Below are positions 3,805-63,300 of a stretch of DNA of 64,000 nucleotides, in pieces. The notes under the pieces were generated by a model that had not been told where the DNA came from, made no database searches, and saw only the letters and a list, made by a program, of their open reading frames with translations. The first letter of the stretch is position 1, and each line of letters starts with the position of its first letter. Source of the DNA: Bacilli bacterium (lineage in GTDB: Bacteria > Bacillota_I > Bacilli_A > RF39 > UBA660); NCBI GenBank assembly GCA_016283935.1, contig JAEENX010000007.1, positions 13,123-77,122 on the forward strand. The letters are read 5' to 3'. The position numbers and the translations under genes are program-made.

Positions 3805-5193
3805 TCACTTACCAATATGCCATATAGCATGATATGTATCACCTTCACATACTGGTATTTCTGCTACAATCAATGGTGAAACAACATCATAATGCATATC
3901 TGAATTATATGATTTAACATTAGCAAAGTATTGAGCTCTTCGTCTACCTGATTTAGCAACATAAATTCCATCACGGATTTTGCAATTTGAGAATCCATAA
4001 AAATCATAATATTCTTCTTCTGATTTTAAAGTTGCTATTTTATCAATTGCATCAGAACTAGTTACTACAATATCTCCTTCACCACAATCACTTTCTATGT
4101 AATTATCTGGTCTTTCATAATCAACATCATAACCAATTTTATTTCTTAGATCCATAGAAGGTTCTACATAAATATCTTCATATTTTCCAAGTGGTATTAT
4201 AACTTTATCATCATAATAGTAATCATGTTCCATGAAATAATAATGAGGAGGAATATCTTCTTTTCTAATAGTCTTTATTAATTGATTATCTGAATATACT
4301 TTTACATATGAATTATCCCCAAATAATGGTTCATCATTGTTGCGAGATATTCTATAAATAGATAAATATGCATTATAATTAGAAATTCCTTCCTTAACCG
4401 TAAAACTAGCAGAATCATATTCTTGAACACTTATAAAACCACTACATGTTAATTTTTCCGAAGCAACTACTTCATTTGAACCAAGGCATATTTCTTTAAC
4501 ATTTGAATCTTCATCAAATGAACCTCTATCAGTTACCAATTTATATTTACAATTTTCAACAGTAATTGTTGAATTTATTTTAATGTTACACTTACATACA
4601 GCTTTTACTATTGTTGGTATTAATATTACTAATGCAAGTGTTAACATCATTGCTCTAAATGTTTTATTCTTCTTGGAAGAATAAATAACAACAAAAGCGA
4701 CTATTAATAATACTGGTAATATATATAACAAAGATTTAACTCCTGTAGGTGGATTTGAAATCTTTCCTCCAGTTAAATCTAAATCAAACGAATTTGTTTC
4801 ATTAAATTTTCCTAAACCAGGATCATTAATTAAAGAAACACTTAATGTAAGTTCTCTTGTCGAACCAGCTTTAACAATCATATTATCTGTTTCAAATAAA
4901 TATTTAACATTTGTATATTTCTTATTAAACATTGATTCATCTAAAACATAATCACCATCAGTATTATTAACAACAGTGATTTTATATTTAATATAATCAT
5001 CTACTCTTGTAAATGAAATATCTAAATCAATAACAGTTCCATTTGCTTTTGCTGGTGTTATTTCAGCTGATCCTTCAGCTTTTTCAATCATTTCAATTGT
5101 TTGAATTGTTACTCCTTCTGTATTACATGTTTCTGCAAATACATTAATTGGAATTAATAATATACTTAAGAATATAATTAATATTTTTTTCAT
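3805..5193 (-). CDS. Surface protein paralog A: signal peptide, Ig-like N-domain, internal NPPTG sorting signal, second TM, Cys-rich C-domain
   Basis: MKKILIIFLSILLIPINVFA signal. ...ISNPPTG VKSLLYILPVLLIVAFVVIYS SKKNK is a complete tripartite sorting signal at aa 150-185. It is followed by the hydrophobic segment MMLTLALVILIPTIVKA and a ~270-aa Cys-rich domain. Confidence 0.7.
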   Translation of the reverse strand: MKKILIIFLSILLIPINVFAETCNTEGVTIQTIEMIEKAEGSAEITPAKANGTVIDLDISFTRVDDYIKYKITVVNNTDGDYVLDESMFNKKYTNVKYLFETDNMIVKAGSTRELTLSVSLINDPGLGKFNETNSFDLDLTGGKISNPPTGVKSLLYILPVLLIVAFVVIYSSKKNKTFRAMMLTLALVILIPTIVKAVCKCNIKINSTITVENCKYKLVTDRGSFDEDSNVKEICLGSNEVVASEKLTCSGFISVQEYDSASFTVKEGISNYNAYLSIYRISRNNDEPLFGDNSYVKVYSDNQLIKTIRKEDIPPHYYFMEHDYYYDDKVIIPLGKYEDIYVEPSMDLRNKIGYDVDYERPDNYIESDCGEGDIVVTSSDAIDKIATLKSEEEYYDFYGFSNCKIRDGIYVAKSGRRRAQYFANVKSYNSDMHYDVVSPLIVAEIPVCEGDTYHAIWHIGK

Positions 5194-5342: not shown

Positions 5343-6731
5343 TTAGTTATCAGTTGATCTACCATTATACCAAATTGCTTTATATTTGTTTCCAGTACAA
5401 ACTTGATGAGTACTAGTTGTCGAAGCAAATGCCATGTCGGCTGGATATACTGGATTTAGTTCTTCTTGTTCATCTACATCTACACAATTAGTAAATCCAA
5501 CTAATCCATCTTGATCATTTGAATATATTAAATTACTGATTTTTTCATTGATAACTTCACTTGTTACAACATTAGCTCCACTTGGACAACTTCCTTCATA
5601 ATACACTTCTTCTGGATCAGGTCCATGTTCAACAGTATACTCAACTTTATTTCTTAAATCTTTTGAAAGAGTAACATATGCATCATCATATTCACCAATA
5701 GGTATTAGCATATATCTTTCAATTAAATCCAAATATTTTCCATCTTCTAATGAATAATAATGTGGCATTATATCGTCTTTTGTAACAGTTTTAATTAATT
5801 TAGTTTTATTTTCATCAGAATATACTTTTATATATGAATTATCATTAAAAACTGGTTCTATAGTACCGTGATTTTCATATGATAGTATTAAATATAAGTA
5901 TGTATAATCACTTGGAACACGTGCATCACGACTAGTTCCTCTTCTTGATGGAGATCCTTCAAAATAAAATCTAGGTCCCTTACATGTTAGTTTTTCTGAT
6001 GCAACTATTTCATTTGCACCTACACATATTTCTCTAACATCTGATCCTTCTTCAAAAGATCCAATATCAGTAGTTAATTTATATTTACATCCTTCAACAG
6101 TAACTGTTGAATTAATTTTTAAATTACATTTACAAATAGCTTTTACTACTGTAGGTATTGTTATTACTAATGCTAAAATAACAGCAATTGTTTTAAATGA
6201 TGTTTTCTTTTTAGATATAAATAATACTACCAATGAAATTATTATCAATACAGGTAACATATATAATAACGATTTAACTCCTGTAGGTGGATTAACAATC
6301 TCACCACCTGTTAAATCCAAATCAAATGAGTTAGTTTCATTGAATTTATCAACAGTTGGATTCTTAGTTAAAGATATAACTAATGTTAAATCTCTGGCAG
6401 CTCCTGCTTTTACCATTTTATCATCTGTTTCAAAAGTATATTTAACATTTGTATACTTTTTATTAAACATTGATTCATCTAAAACGTAATCTACATCAGT
6501 ATTATTTTTAATTGTAGTTTTATATTTAATATAATCATCTACTCTTGTAAATGATACATCTAAATCTATAACTGTTCCATTTACTTTTGCAGCACTTAAT
6601 TCGGCAGCTCCAGCAGCTTTTTCAATCATTTCAATTGATTGAACAGTAACTCCTTCTGCATTACATGTTTCCGCAAATACATTGATTGGAATTAAAATTA
6701 TACTTAAAAATAAAATTAAAATTTTTTTCAT
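5343..6731 (-). CDS. Surface protein paralog B: same architecture with internal NPPTG, diverged C-domain
   Basis: About 85% identical to paralog A over the first ~230 aa (IVNPPTGVKSLLYMLPVLIIISLVVLFISKKK...), then divergent. The upstream intergenic sequence is also duplicated. Confidence 0.7.
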   Translation of the reverse strand: MKKILILFLSIILIPINVFAETCNAEGVTVQSIEMIEKAAGAAELSAAKVNGTVIDLDVSFTRVDDYIKYKTTIKNNTDVDYVLDESMFNKKYTNVKYTFETDDKMVKAGAARDLTLVISLTKNPTVDKFNETNSFDLDLTGGEIVNPPTGVKSLLYMLPVLIIISLVVLFISKKKTSFKTIAVILALVITIPTVVKAICKCNLKINSTVTVEGCKYKLTTDIGSFEEGSDVREICVGANEIVASEKLTCKGPRFYFEGSPSRRGTSRDARVPSDYTYLYLILSYENHGTIEPVFNDNSYIKVYSDENKTKLIKTVTKDDIMPHYYSLEDGKYLDLIERYMLIPIGEYDDAYVTLSKDLRNKVEYTVEHGPDPEEVYYEGSCPSGANVVTSEVINEKISNLIYSNDQDGLVGFTNCVDVDEQEELNPVYPADMAFASTTSTHQVCTGNKYKAIWYNGRSTDN

Positions 6732-10088: not shown

Positions 10089-10345
10089 TATCTCCTTTCT
10101 AAAAATAAAAAAGATCTAATCATCATAAAGACGATTAGATCGTGGTACCACTTTAATTACTTCTCAAATACGTAACGTGTATTAAACGTTTAATCTTACT
10201 AATATTTCAGATTAACGACTCCCAAGCTACCTTCAATTATCTTTCTTAAGAATGTCTCTCAGTCGGTGAACATTCATTCCTGTTAAGTAGTTTTAATTTA
10301 CTCCTCTTGTTCCATGTCTTTTTCAAAACTAATATGATTATATAT
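10089..10345 (-). promoter_or_regulatory. T-box leader controlling the HD-gene/valS operon
   Basis: Minus-strand RNA contains AAUUAAAGUGGUACCACGAUC, a near-consensus T-box. It overlaps a terminator GAUCUAAUCGUC-UUUAU-GAUGAUUAGAUC plus UUUUUUAUUUUU (10100-10141). An alternative antiterminator AUUAAAG[UGGUACC]ACGAU..AUCGU CUUUAU is possible. Stem I has CUGAGAGAC. Candidate -10 is cATATATAATc at about 10337. Confidence 0.65.
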
Positions 10346-48704: not shown

Positions 48705-50039
48705 CTAGTTTATTTGGAACATTTTAGTATATCTACCTTCACCTGAATATACATCAGTCATATCTTCAATATATTCATAATTAGTATATAATTTAGAACC
48801 CCTTTGTTTATAACTATATTTAACTGTTCTAACACCATATAGTAATGATTCTGCAATATATAAATATTCATCATCTTTACCAACAAGTAATGCTGTATGA
48901 CCATTTCTAGCTATTACATCGCCTATTTTATATTTATCTGAATTAGCATATTCATATGTTAAATCATGTCTTGGTCCTAAATCAGACATATCTCTAACAT
49001 CTTCTACTATTCCAGCACCAATGTCTCCTACATCAGTTCCACCATTCATAAGTGCCCATGTTACAAATCCTGAACAATCTAATCCATTAGGTTTTTTAGC
49101 TCCAACAGCCCAACCATCTGTATCATCATAATTTGTTAAAGGACATCCCCAAGTAGCTTTCTTTTCTTTAACATAGTCATCATTTATATTTTTATATCTT
49201 GATTCATTTAAATATAATCCTAAATGATGATATCTTCCTTCACCATCTACTTTTCTTTGACCTTCATAATAAGTATCCAATCTTCCATGTTCATAGAAAT
49301 AAGTTACTTTATATGGGAAAGATAAAGTTAAGAATCTAGCTGCAGCAATAGCACCACCTCTAGTACCACGTCCAGCATAATCTACTCTTTCTTTTAATAA
49401 TTCATCTAAATAATCATTTTGTTCTTCAGTATAAACATTACATGTTAATTTTTGTTTTCCTAAATCAAAGACTGGTTTAACAATCATATCAGTAACAGTA
49501 AATTTAGCTGTTTTAGTAATACCATTTGAAGTTTTTGCAGTAATTACTGCATCTCCTTCACTTACTCCATATACTATTCCATTTTCATCAACTGTTACTA
49601 TGCTATCATCACTTGATGAATAATTGATCTTTTTATCAGGTTCACCTATAAAATCAATTGTAGTATCTAACTCAAACTTCTCACCTATAGCAATATGAAA
49701 TGATTCTAAGTTTAAATCCATACTAATGATTTCATTAGCATCTACATTAAAATTGATTTCATCTTCCCTATTAAAGCTTTTAACTTTTAAAGTATAATCT
49801 CCATTTTCCAAATCAAATTTACAACTATTAGAACTAACTCCATTTACAGTACATTCAATTGGAAAAATATTTGGAACATTAACATTTATTGTAACATTTT
49901 TTGTTTTATTATCATTTACACCTACTGCATAAGTAATACTTTTTATACTAATAGGCAAGTTTAAATATCTATAAGTCACATAACATGTACATATAATTGT
50001 TATTATTAATAAAAATATAACTATAACCCTTTTTTTCAT
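48705..50039 (-). CDS. Big_2-domain NlpC/P60 cell-wall hydrolase (start placed at the second Met)
   Basis: Big_2 (IVTVDENGIVYGVSEGDAVITAKT), NlpC/P60 Cys (LDCSGFVTW) and His (GDVIARNGHTALLVG). The ATG at 50039 follows a hairpin; the track start at 50084 lies inside that hairpin. Confidence 0.65.
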   Translation of the reverse strand: MKKRVIVIFLLIITIICTCYVTYRYLNLPISIKSITYAVGVNDNKTKNVTINVNVPNIFPIECTVNGVSSNSCKFDLENGDYTLKVKSFNREDEINFNVDANEIISMDLNLESFHIAIGEKFELDTTIDFIGEPDKKINYSSSDDSIVTVDENGIVYGVSEGDAVITAKTSNGITKTAKFTVTDMIVKPVFDLGKQKLTCNVYTEEQNDYLDELLKERVDYAGRGTRGGAIAAARFLTLSFPYKVTYFYEHGRLDTYYEGQRKVDGEGRYHHLGLYLNESRYKNINDDYVKEKKATWGCPLTNYDDTDGWAVGAKKPNGLDCSGFVTWALMNGGTDVGDIGAGIVEDVRDMSDLGPRHDLTYEYANSDKYKIGDVIARNGHTALLVGKDDEYLYIAESLLYGVRTVKYSYKQRGSKLYTNYEYIEDMTDVYSGEGRYTKMFQIN

Positions 50040-50087
50040 ATAAATCACTACCAATAATTTAGCACATATAAATAGTTTATACAATAT

Positions 50088-50115
50088 AAAAAGAACTATA
50101 AAAATAGTTCTTTTT
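50088..50115 (-). terminator. Hairpin (attenuator-like) between the large SipW-cognate gene and the NlpC/P60 gene
   Basis: aaaaagaactat-aaaa-atagttcttttt. Confidence 0.4.
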
Positions 50116-51670
50116 AATCAAAACTTTCAGATACTTTTTTGACTGTGATATTAGTGAATATTTCATCTAAAGAAACCTCATTAGAATCGAAATCTAATAC
50201 TAATACACCATCATCTCTTGAATCAAATGTTTCACCTACAGCAATCGTATATGAATTAGGTGAATAATACTTATTTTCACTATTAGCTTTAATACTTGTA
50301 GTAGTTATTACACCTGTCATCCTATTTGGTAAATAACTTGCTTGAGCATCAATAGTTACTTTTGGATTTAATGTTAATTCAATAGTCCATTCATTAATAT
50401 CTTCATCAGTAGTATTTTCAATAGTAAATCCAAATCTATAATGTCTAGCCCATCCATTTATTTGTTTAACACTATATGAAACAGTTGGTTCAACTAAATC
50501 ACTTGGATCTACAGGTTCGTCTGGTTCATCAGGTTCATCAGGTTCATCTGGCTCTTCTGGTTCAGCTACTGGATCTCCTTGAGGAGCATAGTTAGTTGAA
50601 TCTGTTTCAATACCAATTGGTCCATTGTAAGTTACAAGAATTGGATCTTCTTGAGTACCACTTCCACCAGCATACATTACGTCTTCTTTTAAATACATTG
50701 TAGGTCTTACGCCATAAGCATAACTAGCTGCAAGCGCATATATATCACCTTGATACATAGTTACAACAGTATCAGCATAACTTGTAGAATATGCAGGACT
50801 AATAGTCCATTCACCATATTGAGTAGCTAACCATGAATTTTTATAACAATCATTACCCATAGCTAATTCATAACACGCATCATCGTCAACAGAATATCCA
50901 AAATCACTTGGATATGGTAAACCAACATAAGTTAATATTGAGGATGGTCTTGAACTATTATCATTACATCTATTATTAAACCAACTTGATCTACATCCTT
51001 TAGGTGATGCATTACCATTTTCAGATTGCATCAAGAATGCAGGAGTCATATAGCTTGGATTATTATCTATTGAATATGGATTAGTACTTCCTAAATTCCA
51101 ATATACTTTTTCAACCATACTAGCAGCTGTAACTGATAATCCTTTATAATCACATTGTTTAGAAGACATTCTACTACCAGTAATACATGTATAATGATTA
51201 TATTCATTATATGATTTATAGTAAAAATTCTTATACAAATAATTATATACTTGAGAAGTTGTAAAATCATTTGTACCATTTCCATTATTATAGTAATAAT
51301 TACTATTCCAAGCTAATCCTTCAACATAATCAGCTCTTGTAATCTTAGTTAATCTTTTTGTTGAATCTTGAGTAGCAACATCAAATGTACCAATTATTCT
51401 CCATAACTCTCCATTATATAAAATATAATTGTTAGGATTTGTTCCTACATATCTAGAAGCATTTCCAACACTTTTAACATCTAATTTTTTAGCTACTTGT
51501 GAGTCAACATACTCAGTTAAACTATTCTTTTTAAATGCTTTAATAACTGCTCCACCAGTTATCATTAATTCAGTATTAAAGGCAGCATAAGAAAAAGTCA
51601 CAACGGATATTGTGACAAAAAACGCGAACATAAAAATTGTATTTCTTATATGTCTGTTCAAAACATTCAC
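50114..51670 (-). CDS. Large secreted protein with a SipW-cognate/TasA-type signal and a (PDE)n repeat
   Basis: N-terminus ...TISVVTFSYAAFNTELMITGGAVIKA compared with the TasA ...TWAAFNDIKSK..ASGTLDL pattern; Y/N/S-rich with Cys pairs; EPEEPDEPDEPDEPDEP repeat. Confidence 0.5.
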   Translation of the reverse strand: MNVLNRHIRNTIFMFAFFVTISVVTFSYAAFNTELMITGGAVIKAFKKNSLTEYVDSQVAKKLDVKSVGNASRYVGTNPNNYILYNGELWRIIGTFDVATQDSTKRLTKITRADYVEGLAWNSNYYYNNGNGTNDFTTSQVYNYLYKNFYYKSYNEYNHYTCITGSRMSSKQCDYKGLSVTAASMVEKVYWNLGSTNPYSIDNNPSYMTPAFLMQSENGNASPKGCRSSWFNNRCNDNSSRPSSILTYVGLPYPSDFGYSVDDDACYELAMGNDCYKNSWLATQYGEWTISPAYSTSYADTVVTMYQGDIYALAASYAYGVRPTMYLKEDVMYAGGSGTQEDPILVTYNGPIGIETDSTNYAPQGDPVAEPEEPDEPDEPDEPDEPVDPSDLVEPTVSYSVKQINGWARHYRFGFTIENTTDEDINEWTIELTLNPKVTIDAQASYLPNRMTGVITTTSIKANSENKYYSPNSYTIAVGETFDSRDDGVLVLDFDSNEVSLDEIFTNITVKKVSESFD

Positions 51671-51673
51671 TTC

Positions 51674-52834
51674 CTATGCATGTCCATTTTGATCTACATA
51701 CCATCTTGTTATTCTATATTTATATAATGTATCTCCTTCAATTATAACAAAGAAACATTTTTGTCCAGGCATTACATTGTAATATAGAATTGGAGATCCT
51801 TCGTTAATAGAAGCATCAACTAATTGTTCAAATGTTTCAGGATATATGATATTAGTATATTTAGATTCATCTATATCTAATTTACCTCTAACTATTACTC
51901 TATCATAATCTTTTAATATTTTACTAACTAGAGATGTATATAAATCTTTAGTTTTAAATCTCTTATATTCTTTTATAAATCTTAAGAATAAATAGATTAC
52001 AACTTCAATTAATATAACAAATATAATAAACATTGGAATGCTTTTAATAGTAAACTTTTTAGTACTTATTAAGAAATCTTGTTTATTAATATTGTTTGAG
52101 TTTTTCTTTATTGAAGTAGTTGCATCTGTTAAAGGAATTTCAATTTCTTGAAGAATATCTCTTTCATATTTCTTATCCATTCCTTCTTTAGTACCTGTTA
52201 CATGAAGATTCATATAAACATATACTTTAGCAGTAGCAGCTATTCTTAAATCTTGTTTAAAATTATTTGCTTTATCTTTATATTTTTGGAAATCTATCGC
52301 TACAGATTCATTTATATTTATACTAGAACCTGTAAGTTTTTGTTTATCTTTAGCTAATTCTACTACATTATCTTCATCATTAGTTAAAGGAGTTTTTTCA
52401 TCAGTATAATCTAATACTACATATTTAGAAGCTATAGTATAACTATATTCTAAATCTAAAGTATCTGGTGAATGGAATTCATAACTAAATGTAGGATTAA
52501 CAGTTTCAATTAAACTAGATGGATAATTCATTCCTGAATTAAGAATAGTATCACTATAGTTTTCATTTTCTTTAATCTTTACTTTATAAGTTACGTTAGC
52601 CATTTCATTATATGATAAACCATCTACTATAGTATTAAATGAAATAGATCTCATAAATAGTGAAACAGTGATTAAAAGGACTACTATCAAAGGTAAAACT
52701 ACACATACAAAGAAACCTGTTGTTGAGTAAGCAGGTTTACCTTTTTTTGTAACTGTATATGAATTGTTTCTACTTTGATATTTCATCTCTTTAGTCATAT
52801 CAGCTATTTCTCCTTCACTAAGTCTCTTAGCCAA
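51674..52834 (-). CDS. Bitopic/2-TM protein with an internal SipW-cognate-like motif; overlaps the peptidase gene by 31 nt
   Basis: A 45-aa cytoplasmic N-tail, a TM, then LFMRSISFNTIVDGLS; a second TM near aa 265; a C-terminal cytoplasmic domain of about 95 aa. Confidence 0.45.
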   Translation of the reverse strand: MAKRLSEGEIADMTKEMKYQSRNNSYTVTKKGKPAYSTTGFFVCVVLPLIVVLLITVSLFMRSISFNTIVDGLSYNEMANVTYKVKIKENENYSDTILNSGMNYPSSLIETVNPTFSYEFHSPDTLDLEYSYTIASKYVVLDYTDEKTPLTNDEDNVVELAKDKQKLTGSSININESVAIDFQKYKDKANNFKQDLRIAATAKVYVYMNLHVTGTKEGMDKKYERDILQEIEIPLTDATTSIKKNSNNINKQDFLISTKKFTIKSIPMFIIFVILIEVVIYLFLRFIKEYKRFKTKDLYTSLVSKILKDYDRVIVRGKLDIDESKYTNIIYPETFEQLVDASINEGSPILYYNVMPGQKCFFVIIEGDTLYKYRITRWYVDQNGHA

Positions 52835-53964
52835 ATAGAAGGTAACCCTAAATATGAAAATTTAAAATCAGTTTTACCCACTATTTCATTCTTAGTAACA
52901 AGCCAATCATCGACAGCTTGTCCATCTCTATCACCTTTTGTGATAAATGATTTTTCTCCGTTATTTTCAATAACTTCGATAATTCTATGAGTATAGTATT
53001 TACCAGATATATTAAATACAATAACATCTCCATTATTTAATTCATTATATCTTGTACTATAACTCTTATCTACAACAATTAAATCTCCGATTTTAATTGT
53101 AGGATCCATAGATCCAGATCCAACAACACAAACCCAAAATCTAAATATATTACTATTTAAACATACCATTGCAATTACTATAATAAATAATATTACACCA
53201 GTAATTTTTGTAACAATATGTTTATTTCTAATATCTTCTTTATTCTTTTTATTCTTCTTAAATATATCTGGAACACCAATATGCAATAATAACATTATTA
53301 TGATAGGAATTAACATATCAACTACTGTTTCAACATACTTTGAAAAACTTGGTATAATTGGTATTACATATCCATATAAATTAAATATACAACTATATAT
53401 TAAAGCAGTCTTTAATCCATGTTTATATGAAATAACAGTTAATCCTATATTCATAAATAAACATTGCATGAATGTTGTAGTAAACAATTTTAAAAATGGT
53501 TCCAAACTTCTTATATCTACGAAGCTATTTCTTGTAGCAAAATCTACAAATGTAAATAATAGTATATTTGCTACCAATATAAATCTATTACATCCACTTC
53601 TTTGATTAATAGTAAATCTACAAAACTCTTCCAATACTATTATTACTAATACTGGAACAACATTTTTAACTATATCAAAGAATTTCAAACTATATGGATT
53701 ATTATAAAATCCTGTAATTAAACCCAAAGAATATTTTAATACTAGAAAGGCAATTGAATAAAATAAACATAATTTCATTGATTGCTTTCCTGTAAATAAA
53801 TTATCTCTTGGAATACTACATGCTATTGCAAGTGAAGTAAGTAATACCATTAAAAATATGATAATACCAAATTCACCTAAAAACTCATGCATTATTGAAT
53901 TAAATAAAAGAATAATTAATGATAATATTTGAATAAAGAATATTTTTCTTTCACCACTTCTCAT
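52804..53964 (-). CDS. 8-TM polytopic domain fused to an ER/archaeal-type (S26B, SipW/Sec11-like) signal peptidase I
   Basis: C-terminal domain has box B VVGSGSMDPTIKIGDLIVV, box C GDVIVFN, box D YTHRII and box E FITKGDRDGQAVDD. It is preceded by eight predicted TM helices with polar intramembrane residues (LEEFCRF, NQRSGCNRF, LLLHIGVPD). Confidence 0.8.
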   Translation of the reverse strand: MRSGERKIFFIQILSLIILLFNSIMHEFLGEFGIIIFLMVLLTSLAIACSIPRDNLFTGKQSMKLCLFYSIAFLVLKYSLGLITGFYNNPYSLKFFDIVKNVVPVLVIIVLEEFCRFTINQRSGCNRFILVANILLFTFVDFATRNSFVDIRSLEPFLKLFTTTFMQCLFMNIGLTVISYKHGLKTALIYSCIFNLYGYVIPIIPSFSKYVETVVDMLIPIIIMLLLHIGVPDIFKKNKKNKEDIRNKHIVTKITGVILFIIVIAMVCLNSNIFRFWVCVVGSGSMDPTIKIGDLIVVDKSYSTRYNELNNGDVIVFNISGKYYTHRIIEVIENNGEKSFITKGDRDGQAVDDWLVTKNEIVGKTDFKFSYLGLPSIWLRDLVKEK

Positions 53965-53987
53965 ATAATCACCCTTTTAATAAAAAT

Positions 53988-54011
53988 AGGTATAACTACA
54001 GAGTTATACCT
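53988..54011 (-). terminator. Intrinsic terminator between the small TasA-like gene and the peptidase gene
   Basis: AGGUAUAACU-cugu-AGUUAUACCU (10-bp stem) followed by AUUUUUAUU. Confidence 0.6.
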
Positions 54012-54031
54012 AATTTCTTTATATAATTAAA

Positions 54032-54652
54032 TTAAGCTTGTCCGTATACTAAAACTGTATCAGAAATTGCTACTGTAACATCTCCAGCTGGTAAATCGTT
54101 AGGATCATTAGTTTCTCTGTATTTAACAGTGATTTTTAATGTCTTAGATCCTGGAGTGTTTAATGATAGTTTAGGTAATACTTCATCAACTAAAATGTCA
54201 GATCCGTCAACATAAGTAGTTGTAACTGTAACTGCGTTTTCCATTTTTTCTTCATCAGCAGCAGCTGCAGTAGGATCAGTTAAGTTACTAGTATATCCAG
54301 TTACTTTTGCTAAAGTAGCACTAGATAATTTAGCATCATAAGTACCCCAGTTTTCAACAGGTACTGTAAATGTAACTTCATCACCAGGAGTTTTTAAAGC
54401 AACATTGAATCCAGTGATAACTGTTTTAGTATCATCTAGTTTTGGTCCACTACCAAAGATTGCAGCAGTTCCAGTTGTTTCAACTTCTCCTATTTCTCCA
54501 AAGTGTACATCCCATTTAGATGCTTCAATTTTTGCTCCAGATGAGATAACTAAAGTTTGTGAAAAAGATGCCCAAACGATAGATACAAATCCGAATACAG
54601 CAGCGATTGCAACGATTGCAACCATTAATGAATTAAATTTTTCTTGTTTCAT
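54032..54652 (-). CDS. Small secreted TasA/camelysin-like protein with a SipW-cognate signal (candidate major fibre subunit)
   Basis: ...AVFGFVSIVWASFSQTLVISSGAKIEA N-terminus; beta-rich 206 aa. GC is about 35% by hand count over two 100-nt stretches. It has its own promoter and terminator. Confidence 0.55.
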   Translation of the reverse strand: MKQEKFNSLMVAIVAIAAVFGFVSIVWASFSQTLVISSGAKIEASKWDVHFGEIGEVETTGTAAIFGSGPKLDDTKTVITGFNVALKTPGDEVTFTVPVENWGTYDAKLSSATLAKVTGYTSNLTDPTAAAADEEKMENAVTVTTTYVDGSDILVDEVLPKLSLNTPGSKTLKITVKYRETNDPNDLPAGDVTVAISDTVLVYGQA

Positions 54653-54705: not shown

Positions 54706-54714
54706 ATTATACCA
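54706..54714 (-). promoter_or_regulatory. Extended -10 (TGgTATAAT) promoter for the TasA-like gene
   Basis: Minus-strand aaatgGTATAATtt about 45 nt upstream of the ATG; the -35 is weak. Confidence 0.35.
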
Positions 54715-54785
54715 TTTAGTATTTAAACGTAAAATATAAATGTCAAAAAAAATATGTCACTTTACACAAATTATTAACATAAAAA

Positions 54786-56590: not shown

Positions 56591-57553
56591 TTAAGGGAAT
56601 AAATCTCTTAATTCTTGTCTATCTTCATATGGAATTGAATGTTCTTCATTTATAATTCTATATTTTCTATTTATATAATCTTCTATACCATTTATAACTT
56701 CTTCTTTAGTTCTAGAAGATTTCTTTTCTTCTGATAAATATGTTCTAGATAAAATATCATCCATGATATCATTTACAGATTTTAAACTTTCTTCTATAGG
56801 TTCTTCCTTAGGAATAACAGGTATAATATCATCTGTATTAATAACAGGAAGTGTTCTAGTATCTAAAAGTTTATCCATTTCTTCTTCAGTTGGTAATACT
56901 AAAGTTTCTGTATTTTCTTTAATATCATAGTCTAATCCAGGAACTTCTATATCTTGAGTTTTTTCAACAATTGGTTCTTGAACCTTAGGCTCAACAACCT
57001 TTGTTTCAACAACTTTTGGTTCTTCTTTTTTCTTTTCTGCTTTTTTAACTTCTACTTTAACTTTAACCTTAACTTGTTTAGGTTCTTCTTTCTTAACTTC
57101 TACCTTCTTATTTCTATTAGCAGCATTTACTTTACTAATTTGTTCTTCTATAGTTAAGAAATCTTTTAAACATCTTTCAGCAGTCTTAACTTTATCAGAG
57201 CCATCTCTTTTAATATAACTAATATATGTATCTCTAAATTTCTTATCTTTAGATATATTAACGGCATTAACGAGTTTACTCTTTTCAACAATGTTTAATA
57301 CTTGTTTATTTTCTATATCACTTAACATAGCTAACATAATATAAGCTAAATCAGCTTTCTTTTTATGTGTATTAGCTAGTTTTAATTTTAAATAAAATTT
57401 CTTTAATCTATCTTGTTGTTTAGGTTTATCTTTATAATCAATGATACCTAAAACTACTTCAAAAATTGATAAACAAGCATTACTATTTGAGTTTAAAATG
57501 TCGATATCATTCATATAAAGTTCTCCTTCCCGATTATATTTAAATTTTACCAA
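56591..57553 (-). CDS. Hypothetical protein with a Lys/Glu/Val-rich KVEVKK repeat
   Basis: KKVEVKKEEPKQVKVKVKVEVKKAEKKKEEPKVVETKVVEPKVQEP low-complexity repeat. Confidence 0.4.
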   Translation of the reverse strand: MVKFKYNREGELYMNDIDILNSNSNACLSIFEVVLGIIDYKDKPKQQDRLKKFYLKLKLANTHKKKADLAYIMLAMLSDIENKQVLNIVEKSKLVNAVNISKDKKFRDTYISYIKRDGSDKVKTAERCLKDFLTIEEQISKVNAANRNKKVEVKKEEPKQVKVKVKVEVKKAEKKKEEPKVVETKVVEPKVQEPIVEKTQDIEVPGLDYDIKENTETLVLPTEEEMDKLLDTRTLPVINTDDIIPVIPKEEPIEESLKSVNDIMDDILSRTYLSEEKKSSRTKEEVINGIEDYINRKYRIINEEHSIPYEDRQELRDLFP

Positions 57554-60648: not shown

Positions 60649-63300
60649 TTAATTTAATGGAATTAAATCAGATGTAATTCTGTTTCCTTGATAATCAAAG
60701 GCATTCATTACAGCTACATATTTAACATCATCTTCAATTTCATTCATAAAGAAATGATAATTTGGATATTTATATGGAACTAATTCATGTCCTATATAAG
60801 TTGGATGTGATTTCCAATCTAATGTATAATGTCCACCTTCATCTGTAATTATATATCTGAAATTCCAGAATTGAACTGTTCTCCAATCTTCTATTTGCCA
60901 TTTTATCTTATTCTTAGATATATCTTCATTTGTTTCTTGTTTTGGAACAATACCATCAACATCTACTTGTCCATCTTTAACATATACTTGAAGATATCCT
61001 AATTCAGAACGATAATTTTTAAATCCATCATCCCAATTTTCCATTCTGGCGGATAAATTATATAAAGTTCCACGGTTAGTAAGTTTTCCTTGGAAAGCCA
61101 TTGCAAATGCAATATCACTTTCTCCATCTTCAGCTTCACCATCATCTTCTGAATCAAAGCATACTATTTTTCTATCATAGAATCCACCTAATTTATTACC
61201 TCTTAATACTACGTTATCTCCTCTAAATACAGGAGTATAATAACCTTCACCCATATCTCTAAATACTAAGTAGAATCCTCTAGCATAATTTTGAGCTTGT
61301 TCATCAGTTAATTCCATAGTAATAACTCTTTCATCCTTATCAAATTCAGATTTCAAAGTACCAGGACTAGATTCAGTATATGATTTAGTAATTGGAGCTC
61401 CATTATATAAATTATAATAATTACTTAAGAAATCATTATAATCTTTAAAATCAGCAAAGAATATTGGATATAATTTAGAAAGTATTAAATCTGTAGTTTC
61501 TTTATCAATATGTAATGGGTAATAAATAGATAATCCAGTTGAATTTTTTAAATTAGAATTACTATATACTACTGCATCAGTAATTGTACTAGATAAATCA
61601 TTAAATCCTAACTTATCACTAAACATTTTTAAATCAATTAAATCGTATCCATTATCTCCAAATTCAAGAGTATCTAATCTACTCTTAGAAAGATTACTAA
61701 ATTGGCTATTTATATCAACTGATTTAAATCTCTCATTTAACTTACTAACAACATTATCTACTTTGGATAAATCTACTAATGATAATGTATAAATAAATTG
61801 TGTTCCTAATTTTTGACTATATTCAGCATTTGAATCAGCAAACGAATTTATAATTTGTTTTCCTAAAGAAATAGAATCAAGTCTAGAAGCATTTTCAAAT
61901 CCCTTATCATATGTCCATCCAAGATTATACTCAGATTCTTCACTTGCAATATAATAACTAGCATATTCATCTAATAAGTTTGCCATTTCGATTGAACCCA
62001 TTAAACATGCATCAAAACCTATAAATTCAAATTTTCTATTTTTATTAAATTTAGTAGCAGCAAGTGCAGTTGCAATTTCATTTGCATATAATCTATCATT
62101 ATTAACTTCATCTACACCGTATCCAATGATTGGTCCACCACCATGATCCCATAAAATCAAATCATAGTATTCTGAATCTGTTATACCATCAACAGTATTA
62201 ATAAATGAGGCTAAAATATTTGGATCACCCATATTTAAGTTACCATTCATTCCAATTTTAGTATATCCACCATCTTTAACATGAAGAATATCTCCATTAT
62301 TAAGACCATCAATACCCCATTGTTTTGATCCACCTAATAATACATAAAAATCTGTAGCATCATCTTTTACTTGAGCCATTTCATAAATGTCTCTAGATGC
62401 AGCATATCCATTTGATTCCAAATCAGTACCTACTAAATATACTAATACTGATCTAGTTATTTTTTTCTTTTCTTCAACAGTTGGTGCTTGTGTTGTAATA
62501 ACTCTTGTTGTAGTTGTTGTAGTTGTTGGTACATATGAAGTTCTTGTTGTTACTCCATGTGTTGTATATACACCACTACTAGTAGTTGTGGTTGTTGTTG
62601 TAGTTGTTGTACTAGTATTCTTTGTTGTAGATTGTTGTGTTGTTTGTTGTGTTGTTTGTTGTGTAGTACTTGGTTTTACAGTTGTTTGGTATGTCGATTG
62701 TGTTGTTGATTGTGTTGTCTTTACTGTTGTTTTTTCAGTAGTGTTTGCCTTAGTTGTTGTTACATATGTAGATCTTGTAGTTGTTGTCGGTGTTGTTACA
62801 GGTCTAGTTGTTTGTGAAACAGTTGTTGATGTAACTTTAGATGTACTTGTAGTTCTAGGTGCTGTAGTTGCAGTAGTATTTGTTATAACTACATCATTAT
62901 CATCAATATAATATGGTACTGCATCATAATTAAATTGATATTCACCTGTATAAATTGATGAATTATTTATTAATTCTCTATTCTTTCTAGTATTTATTAC
63001 TAATGCAATTGTTAATACTATAATAATTGAAATTAATACAACAAACCCTATAATTACAAATAATTTACTATTACTCTTTTTAGGTTCTACAGGAGGTTGT
63101 ACTGGAGCTACTGGTTGAACCGGTTGTTGTACCGGAGTAACACTTTGAGCTATTCCTGCATTTACTGGTTGTTGCATAACACTATTAACTTCTTGTGCAG
63201 TTGGTTGAACTTGAACAAGTGAATTATTCTTTGCTCCACATGTTGGGCAAAATGCAGCATTAACATCATATTGATTATTACAATTTTCACAATTTTTCAT
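60649..63300 (-). CDS. Type-II membrane-anchored clostripain-like (C11) cysteine peptidase with an N-terminal zinc ribbon, Pro/Gln-rich and Thr-rich linkers
   Basis: CENCNN...CPTCG, a TM, a poly-Thr linker, then WDHGGGP (His) and FDACLMGS (Cys) as in peptidase C11. Confidence 0.6.
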   Translation of the reverse strand: MKNCENCNNQYDVNAAFCPTCGAKNNSLVQVQPTAQEVNSVMQQPVNAGIAQSVTPVQQPVQPVAPVQPPVEPKKSNSKLFVIIGFVVLISIIIVLTIALVINTRKNRELINNSSIYTGEYQFNYDAVPYYIDDNDVVITNTTATTAPRTTSTSKVTSTTVSQTTRPVTTPTTTTRSTYVTTTKANTTEKTTVKTTQSTTQSTYQTTVKPSTTQQTTQQTTQQSTTKNTSTTTTTTTTTTSSGVYTTHGVTTRTSYVPTTTTTTTRVITTQAPTVEEKKKITRSVLVYLVGTDLESNGYAASRDIYEMAQVKDDATDFYVLLGGSKQWGIDGLNNGDILHVKDGGYTKIGMNGNLNMGDPNILASFINTVDGITDSEYYDLILWDHGGGPIIGYGVDEVNNDRLYANEIATALAATKFNKNRKFEFIGFDACLMGSIEMANLLDEYASYYIASEESEYNLGWTYDKGFENASRLDSISLGKQIINSFADSNAEYSQKLGTQFIYTLSLVDLSKVDNVVSKLNERFKSVDINSQFSNLSKSRLDTLEFGDNGYDLIDLKMFSDKLGFNDLSSTITDAVVYSNSNLKNSTGLSIYYPLHIDKETTDLILSKLYPIFFADFKDYNDFLSNYYNLYNGAPITKSYTESSPGTLKSEFDKDERVITMELTDEQAQNYARGFYLVFRDMGEGYYTPVFRGDNVVLRGNKLGGFYDRKIVCFDSEDDGEAEDGESDIAFAMAFQGKLTNRGTLYNLSARMENWDDGFKNYRSELGYLQVYVKDGQVDVDGIVPKQETNEDISKNKIKWQIEDWRTVQFWNFRYIITDEGGHYTLDWKSHPTYIGHELVPYKYPNYHFFMNEIEDDVKYVAVMNAFDYQGNRITSDLIPLN

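Follow-up and report, generated by a model that had tools for sequence, protein, structure and literature searches.

What are the eight additional transmembrane (TM) helices that precede, in one reading frame, the catalytic part of a signal peptidase encoded in the window (the whole 64,000-nucleotide stretch of DNA analysed here)? We propose, at a probability of roughly 0.6, that this is a signal peptidase dedicated to an AbpX-type fibre system, and that the extra helices form a degenerate CAAX-protease-like (CPBP) module acting as an intramembrane scaffold.

Architecture of the fused peptidase

The earlier note had described a fusion between an eight-TM domain and a signal peptidase, and this proved to be real. 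The open reading frame begins with an ATG, is preceded by the Shine-Dalgarno sequence AAGGGTGA, and contains no internal stops by reading-frame check (Table 1). An AlphaFold2 (AF2) model based on a 69-sequence alignment (mean pLDDT 86) consists of eight N-terminal helices, a linker, an anchor helix at residues 245-270, and a beta-rich catalytic domain, and the same arrangement recurs in more than 200 full-length homologues. The full-length model reaches a pTM of 0.65 versus 0.87 for the N-domain alone, so the arrangement of the domains relative to one another is uncertain; a mean-field DCA of helices contacting TM9 (204 sequences, Meff 184) was dominated by gap and alignment artefacts. Loop counts of Lys and Arg, for this protein as well as averaged over 204 homologues, support a predicted N-in topology with the catalytic domain outside, and the linker carries a family mean of 3.4 such residues. 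With only 12 residues, the C-terminal helix (374-385) has neither the length nor the hydrophobicity for a membrane crossing, and across the family the tail is polar with a median of 11 residues. This gives nine TM helices plus a short amphipathic helix.

Table 1 Features of the fused peptidase and its gene cluster, in window coordinates
Feature	Position	Strand	Details
Best promoter-like site upstream of the subunit gene	54706..54733	-	TTTACG-16-TATAAT, extended TG; consensus match only
AbpX-like (TasA-superfamily) fibre subunit	54032..54652	-	206 aa; predicted cleavage between ...IVWA and SFSQTLVISSG
11-bp hairpin then T-run, gap between subunit and peptidase genes	53987..54012	-	Terminator/attenuator-like; pattern match only
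Whole peptidase gene: CPBP-fold module, linker, anchor helix, Sec11-type signal peptidase I	52804..53964	-	386 aa
N-terminal 8-TM module, CPBP/Rce1/Abi fold	53257..53964	-	aa 1-236; degenerate catalytic motifs
E113-F-C-R116 in TM4	53617..53628	-	E113 and R116 each 204/204; putative site of CPBP motif 1
F137-x-x-x-D141 in TM5	53542..53556	-	D141 site acidic in 184/204; putative site of CPBP motif 2
N172 in TM6	53449..53451	-	Conserved in 191/204
P202-I-I-P205, outer-face loop between TM7 and TM8	53350..53361	-	P202 200/204, P205 202/204
Basic disordered cytoplasmic linker VPDIFKKNKKNKED	53233..53274	-	aa 231-244; pLDDT <50 at 234-242
TM9, the peptidase's own N-in/C-out anchor helix	53155..53232	-	aa 245-270; AF2 model and topology
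Extracytoplasmic Sec11/archaeal-type catalytic domain	52807..53154	-	S285, H326, D345, D352 invariant
Catalytic-residue codons	S285 53110-53112; H326 52987-52989; D345 52930-52932; D352 52909-52911	-	
DUF5305-family protein, putative signal-peptidase accessory subunit	51674..52798	-	~374 aa
518-aa secreted protein, probable minor or tip component	50114..51670	-	Cognate signal, ...FSYA before and AFNTELMITGG after the cut
Terminator-like hairpin directly after the 459-aa Big_2/NlpC-P60 gene	48691..48711	-	Probable operon end

A Sec11-type catalytic domain

The C-terminal domain can be assigned by its sequence features to signal peptidase I of the ER/archaeal type (MEROPS S26B), as the earlier note had held: it scores 75.5 bits against TIGR02228 (sigpep_I_arch; curated cutoff 51.85) over aa 254-375, and among solved structures its best sequence matches are human SEC11C and SEC11A (E=2.5e-9). 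The Ser nucleophile lies in an SGSM box, the general base is His rather than Lys, and conserved Asp residues occupy the GD box; the four catalytic residues are invariant in 69 sequences and align with the SGSMEP, HRV, and TKGD boxes of SEC11A/C. The motifs quoted earlier were all located—GSGSMDP at aa 282-288, GDVIVF at 312-317, YTHRII at 324-329, and ITKGDRDGQAVDD at 341-353—and the anchor helix sequence ITGVILFIIVIAMVCL is present at aa 254-269. By homology, then, the domain is predicted to be catalytically complete and to face outward.

Two better-known enzymes invite comparison. SipW, from the Bacillus tapA-sipW-tasA operon, is likewise a Sec11/archaeal-type Ser-His peptidase, and the TasA-superfamily subunits it serves present an aromatic residue at P2', but it has no 8-TM module, and its partner is TapA rather than DUF5305. 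Against the SipW equivalog NF046067 the window protein scores 64.7 bits, below the cutoff of 190, and it is therefore not a SipW orthologue. The eukaryotic signal peptidase complex (SEC11 with SPC22/23, SPC25, and SPC12; PDB 7P2P/7P2Q), whose SEC11A/C subunits are closest to the catalytic domain, may offer a functional analogy in the idea of extra TM helices around the anchor of the catalytic subunit, although those of the window enzyme form a CPBP-fold domain in cis that is unrelated to SPC12 or SPC25. It is DUF5305 that has been likened to an accessory subunit, in the AbpX preprint discussed below.

An AbpX-type fibre cluster

All genes of the cluster lie on the minus strand, in the order promoter-like site, 206-aa gene, hairpin with T-run, peptidase, DUF5305 gene, 518-aa gene, 459-aa Big_2/NlpC-P60 gene, and terminator-like hairpin; promoter-like sites were not enriched over shuffles. 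A profile of the 206-aa protein and its homologues matches solved AbpX (PDB 9sj2, E=2e-11) in an alignment that begins at the mature N-terminus, WSETL, and the protein also matches paralogues in the Clostridia-like locus L001 (E=7e-25), where the 518-aa protein has a 483-aa counterpart (E=6e-23). The DUF5305 gene likely starts at the ATG at 52798, 5 nt past the peptidase stop, with its Shine-Dalgarno sequence GAAGGAG inside the peptidase gene. Its product has two TM segments (~aa 41-63 and 265-288 of the listed ORF); a direct search found no Pfam match at E<=0.1, and comparison with a PF17231-annotated protein of L001 gave E=5e-58. The earlier note had counted three neighbours with cognate-style signals, but a motif scan of the whole window found the motif in only two proteins, those of 206 and 518 aa.

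The survey of the fusion and its neighbourhood that the earlier note had called for covered eight other loci: Clostridia-like L001, L007, and L009, archaeal L003, L006, and L008, and L010 and L011 from isolates. AbpX-like small proteins, the fused peptidase, and DUF5305 were found in all eight, with DUF5305 immediately downstream of the peptidase in seven, and the 8-TM module was limited to AbpX-type cassettes in every sampled locus. All putative substrates share a signal end with ...[Y/W/L]-[A/G] before the cut and x-[F/W]-[S/T]-x-[S/T]-[L/M/V]-x-[I/V] after it, and the sequence past the predicted cut lines up with the N-terminus of mature AbpX as solved. According to PMC10269814, it is an aromatic P2' residue that makes housekeeping LepB-type enzymes cleave TasA poorly and leaves its processing to SipW. 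DUF5305 also accompanies TafD, a differently built peptidase, in haloarchaeal Tafi loci, where tafD deletion blocks TafA processing.

A preprint of January 2026 on AbpX of Pyrodictium abyssi (bioRxiv 10.64898/2026.01.04.697558) reports that AbpX polymerises by donor-strand complementation, describes an AbpX-dedicated SPase I with ten TM helices in bacteria and archaea, and proposes DUF5305 as an SPase accessory subunit. The cluster described there is the same as ours—AbpX-like subunits, a multi-TM TIGR02228 SPase I, DUF5305, and tip or minor components—and in the window, too, an AbpX homologue adjoins a peptidase of about ten TM helices with DUF5305 co-encoded. The Natronincola peptidivorans enzyme belongs to the same N-domain family as the window protein. 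The preprint counts ten helices, against nine plus a short amphipathic C-terminal helix here. CAAX, CPBP, Rce1, and SpdC are absent from its main text, which leaves the fold of the extra helices unnamed, and no account of a fusion between a CPBP module and a signal peptidase turned up in the papers searched. The unusual architecture and the type of locus had thus already been noted; the present analysis adds a fold for those helices and a comparison with SpbR-SpsB, drawn below.

A CPBP fold with degenerate motifs

The N-domain adopts the eight-TM, Rce1-like fold of CPBP proteins, a likeness that the sequence comparisons do not share. Pfam and NCBIfam gave no match to the N-domain of this protein alone, and 26 family N-domains had none either, Pfam PF02517 included, even at E<=10. 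The hhalign probability was below 1% when the N-domain profile was compared with one bona fide CPBP sequence and again when the 204-sequence profile was set against a 13-sequence CPBP profile, the latter a weak negative given how narrow that profile is (Neff 3.4). Searched against PDB sequences, the N-domain profile returned only a chance match to NDH subunit 2 (E=0.037), and a search for a PDB sequence relative of the CPBP protein of L003 found none. With no link at the sequence level, common ancestry with CPBP proteins could be argued from the fold only; membership in PF02517 is unsupported by sequence, and the relationship is at the fold level only.

The histidines of motifs 2 and 3 are essential in Rce1. 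Relative to Rce1/CPBP proteins (Abi, PF02517; PDB 4CAD), the window N-domain has ExxR at the putative site of EExxxR, with the position of the first Glu (112) variable; Asp or Glu at position 141, where the motif 2 FxxxH would have His; and no His at motif 3 either. Conservation was counted over 204 family members, and besides the residues of Table 1 it extends to Y190 (175/204). From helix order and spacing only, we infer that E113, D141, and N172 would be equivalent to the catalytic positions of Rce1. Among the buried polar strings highlighted in the earlier note, only E113 and R116 of LEEFCRF (111-117) are conserved: NQRSGCNRF and KHG fall in turns on the cytoplasmic side, and LLLHIGVPD has a His that varies across the family. 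A search of the N-domain columns for a catalytic His or Cys found maxima of 13% and 10%, respectively, whereas exosortases carry a conserved Cys-Arg-His set. No NCBIfam exosortase matched at E<=0.1, and the suggestion of an exosortase- or archaeosortase-like domain was rejected.

On the outer face, the P202-P205 loop is modelled as a short strand paired with residues 86-88 of the TM3-TM4 loop. By analogy with the loop of SpbR that contacts SpsB, the catalytic domain may sit on a platform for which these conserved outer-face loops (G81/G85; P202-x-x-P205-[N/D]) are candidates.

A proposed scaffold for the peptidase

The nearest parallel is the SpbR-SpsB pair of Staphylococcus aureus (PMC12260438), in which, as in the window protein, a degenerate CAAX-protease-like 8-TM protein is partnered with a type I signal peptidase. 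SpbR retains E...R and FxxxD and has lost the histidines (motifs HELYMR, FIYLD, and QIVAI), as has the N-domain, and a validated AlphaFold2 model places its contact with SpsB at the TM anchor of the peptidase and an outer loop (PMC12260438). The two systems also differ: SpbR and SpsB are separate proteins and SpbR inhibits cleavage of general substrates (PMC12260438), whereas the window protein is one polypeptide in a dedicated fibre operon; and SpsB is a bacterial Ser-Lys enzyme (LepB-type, S26A), whereas the window peptidase is of the Sec11 type. Another case is the peptidoglycan release complex SpdC/LyrA-SagB (PDB 6U0O), at 10% sequence identity, where the partner is a glucosaminidase held in trans and SpdC carries a long cytoplasmic tail in place of a fused enzyme.

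On the strength of these analogies, the N-terminal module would most likely act as SpdC does for SagB and especially as SpbR does for SpsB, that is, as an intramembrane scaffold that holds and orients the anchor helix and the catalytic domain. The outward Sec11-like domain (Ser285/His326/Asp345/Asp352) would cut the Sec signals of the AbpX-like subunit and of the 518-aa protein after ...[Y/W]-A, freeing an N-terminus of the form x-[F/W]-[S/T]-x-[S/T]-L-x-I, which matches the mature N-terminus of solved AbpX. The module may also present a lateral groove to the signal peptide, to the two TM helices of the DUF5305 protein, or to both, and binding in this groove would restrict and tune cleavage to the cognate fibre subunits. 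Both this docking role and the choice of bound helices are reasoned from the SpbR and SpdC systems, and two other readings of the N-domain, each less likely than a scaffold, deserve to be weighed against them.

The first is that the N-domain only anchors or stabilises the enzyme by its bulk, binds no partner in particular, and is conserved for insertion or folding of the enzyme, with the degenerate motifs as possible structural relics. We consider this unlikely. Ordinary Sec11/SipW enzymes need only one or two helices, whereas here the helix arrangement and particular polar and Pro positions stay constant across Bacteria and Archaea at ~20% identity; the closest structural relatives all act by binding the TM helices of partners; and in every sampled locus the module is confined to AbpX-type cassettes.

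The second, which we regard as very unlikely, is that the N-domain itself cleaves peptide bonds within the membrane as a non-canonical CPBP protease built on E113, D/E141, and N172, for example one that clears the cleaved signal peptide, as a signal-peptide peptidase would, or trims the substrate elsewhere. The fold is compatible with such an activity; E113 and R116 are invariant, position 141 is acidic in 90% and N172 kept in 94% of homologues that diverge to ~20% identity and span two domains of life, and all of these residues lie within the membrane. Active bacterial CPBP proteases exist, such as MroQ, and carry the motifs EExxxR, FxxxH, and HxxxD/N (PMC12260438). Yet both motif histidines, the marks of competent CAAX proteases, are absent family-wide; what remains, E/R and FxxxD, is what the non-catalytic SpbR keeps, and mutations of its H/E/R motif residues had no phenotype (PMC12260438); and profile similarity to PF02517 is lacking. 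The earlier note's speculation on a CPBP-like second activity thus holds at the level of the fold and fails for the activity: judged by its sequence, the N-domain is probably not an active protease. One elaboration, to our minds just as improbable, would have the module capture the signal peptide in a cavity corresponding to the prenylated-peptide cavity of Rce1 and degrade it after the cut through a histidine-free E113, D/E141, and N172 centre. Still, a buried Glu-Arg pair, an acidic residue, and an Asn kept from archaea to Firmicutes are more than a passive scaffold would obviously need.

If the scaffold reading is right, its interest extends beyond this operon. CAAX-protease-like (CPBP/Abi) proteins are very common in bacteria, most of them with no assigned function, and the few non-catalytic ones studied are scaffolds for single-pass envelope enzymes, the S. 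aureus signal peptidase among them. A natural fusion found from Clostridia and Bacilli to archaea would be 'Rosetta-stone' evidence that the partnership between CPBP-like proteins and signal peptidases is ancient and general, and the unexplained extra helices of the peptidase responsible for maturing AbpX-type biofilm-matrix fibres thereby gain a fold and a role that can be tested. Were the signal-peptide-degrading reading true instead, one polypeptide would combine a signal peptidase with a signal-peptide peptidase, and the CPBP superfamily would gain a new catalytic variant.

Spread of the family and integrity of the fusion

The fusion is not rare: an N-domain-only profile searched against 1.84 billion representatives finds 1,717 proteins (1,350 at E<=1e-10), and nearly all of the best 150 matches are ~365-391 aa long. 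A whole-protein search returned 87 clusters of 365-405 aa with full-length coverage down to ~23% identity, and the more than 200 full-length homologues (360-410 aa) come from independent assemblies and reach down to ~20% identity. Standalone or differently fused N-domains were sought among the N-domain profile matches, and none was convincing. A few relatives of ~235-270 aa end near the linker, one of them (P0162) right before the SGSM box; these look like contig-end truncations, and an 812-aa match (P0147) appears chimeric. There is accordingly next to no chance that the long frame is an artefact, as the earlier note had cautioned, in which a missed stop or frameshift merges two genes, one for a membrane protein and the other sipW-like: the short relatives might hint at it, but the frame is uninterrupted and the full-length homologues, isolate genomes included, exclude it.

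A further search with the N-domain profile returned fusions only, among them those of two isolates, Natronincola peptidivorans and Lacrimispora indolis, whose enzymes are annotated by their sources simply as signal peptidase I; with these cultured hosts, the scaffold hypothesis is directly testable. The host genome of the window is low-GC (26%), uncultured, and Bacilli-like. A genome scan with a narrow alignment found one close relative, at 74% identity, in an 'uncultured Bacillales' MAG, the nearest genome match.

Putative expression signals within the operon

Within the 67-nt gap that separates the peptidase gene from the gene for the AbpX-like subunit lies an 11-bp hairpin followed by TTTTTATT (53987-54012). 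Judged by its sequence, this arrangement resembles a partial terminator or attenuator. Attenuation at this hairpin could leave more subunit mRNA than enzyme mRNA. At the other end of the peptidase gene, the mechanically listed start of the DUF5305-like ORF is a TTG at 52834, giving a 31-nt overlap with the peptidase gene (window 52786-52834). An alternative ATG at 52798, provided with a GAAGGAG Shine-Dalgarno sequence and located 5 nt past the peptidase stop, is the more likely start; its use would imply translational coupling.

Downstream operon genes

The 518-aa protein (50114-51670, minus strand) carries an acidic PEEPDEPDEPDEPDEPVDP linker at aa ~369-397, followed by a beta-rich C-terminal region, with weak, sub-threshold matches to CBM_2 and Big_3; we consider it a putative minor or tip component. 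The membrane-anchored Big_2 + NlpC/P60-like protein lacks the cognate signal shared by the predicted peptidase substrates, and the closest relative (locus L005, 9905-11284) has conserved its gene at the equivalent place. The protein could be a partner of the fibre system in cell-wall remodelling.

Comparison loci and related proteins

In two cultured isolates, Natronincola peptidivorans (L010) and Lacrimispora indolis (L011), the homologous cassette adjoins a histidine kinase (HisKA_3) and GerE-type response regulators; no two-component system is adjacent to the operon in the window. About 2 kb downstream of the archaeal cassette, the opposite strand carries a CPBP (PF02517) gene that is canonical and complete in its motifs (L003, 11503-12201; L004, 10510-11208), and thus an intact CPBP protease and the degenerate fused module are encoded close to each other in one genome. 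One 812-aa protein of the representative library (P0147) combines the N-domain and the first peptidase boxes, continuing into metallophosphoesterase/5'-nucleotidase-like sequence—probably a chimera arising from assembly or gene calling and not a new architecture.

Other features in the window

Coordinates of additional features in the window
Feature	Position	Strand	Remarks
11-bp hairpin, then TTTTTATT	53987-54012	minus	inside subunit-peptidase gap
Big_2 + NlpC/P60-like protein, membrane-anchored	48705-50084	minus	final gene ahead of terminator-like site
T-box leader (RF00230)	10124-10323	minus	98 bits, exceeds gathering score
Two tandem paralogous secreted proteins, 462 aa each	3805-5193; 5343-6731	minus	near-identical N-termini
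320-aa ORF	56591-57553	minus	long K/E/V/P low-complexity repeat (…KVEVKKEEPKQVKVKVKVEVKKAEKKKEEPKVVETKVVEPKVQEP…)
883-aa ORF	60649-63300	minus	begins with zinc-ribbon-like CENC…CPTC motif

The 320-aa ORF had no family match. The T-box leader precedes a 236-aa ORF and an 843-aa ORF, and the tandem paralogues begin MKKILI[IL]FLSI[IL]LIPINVFAETCN....
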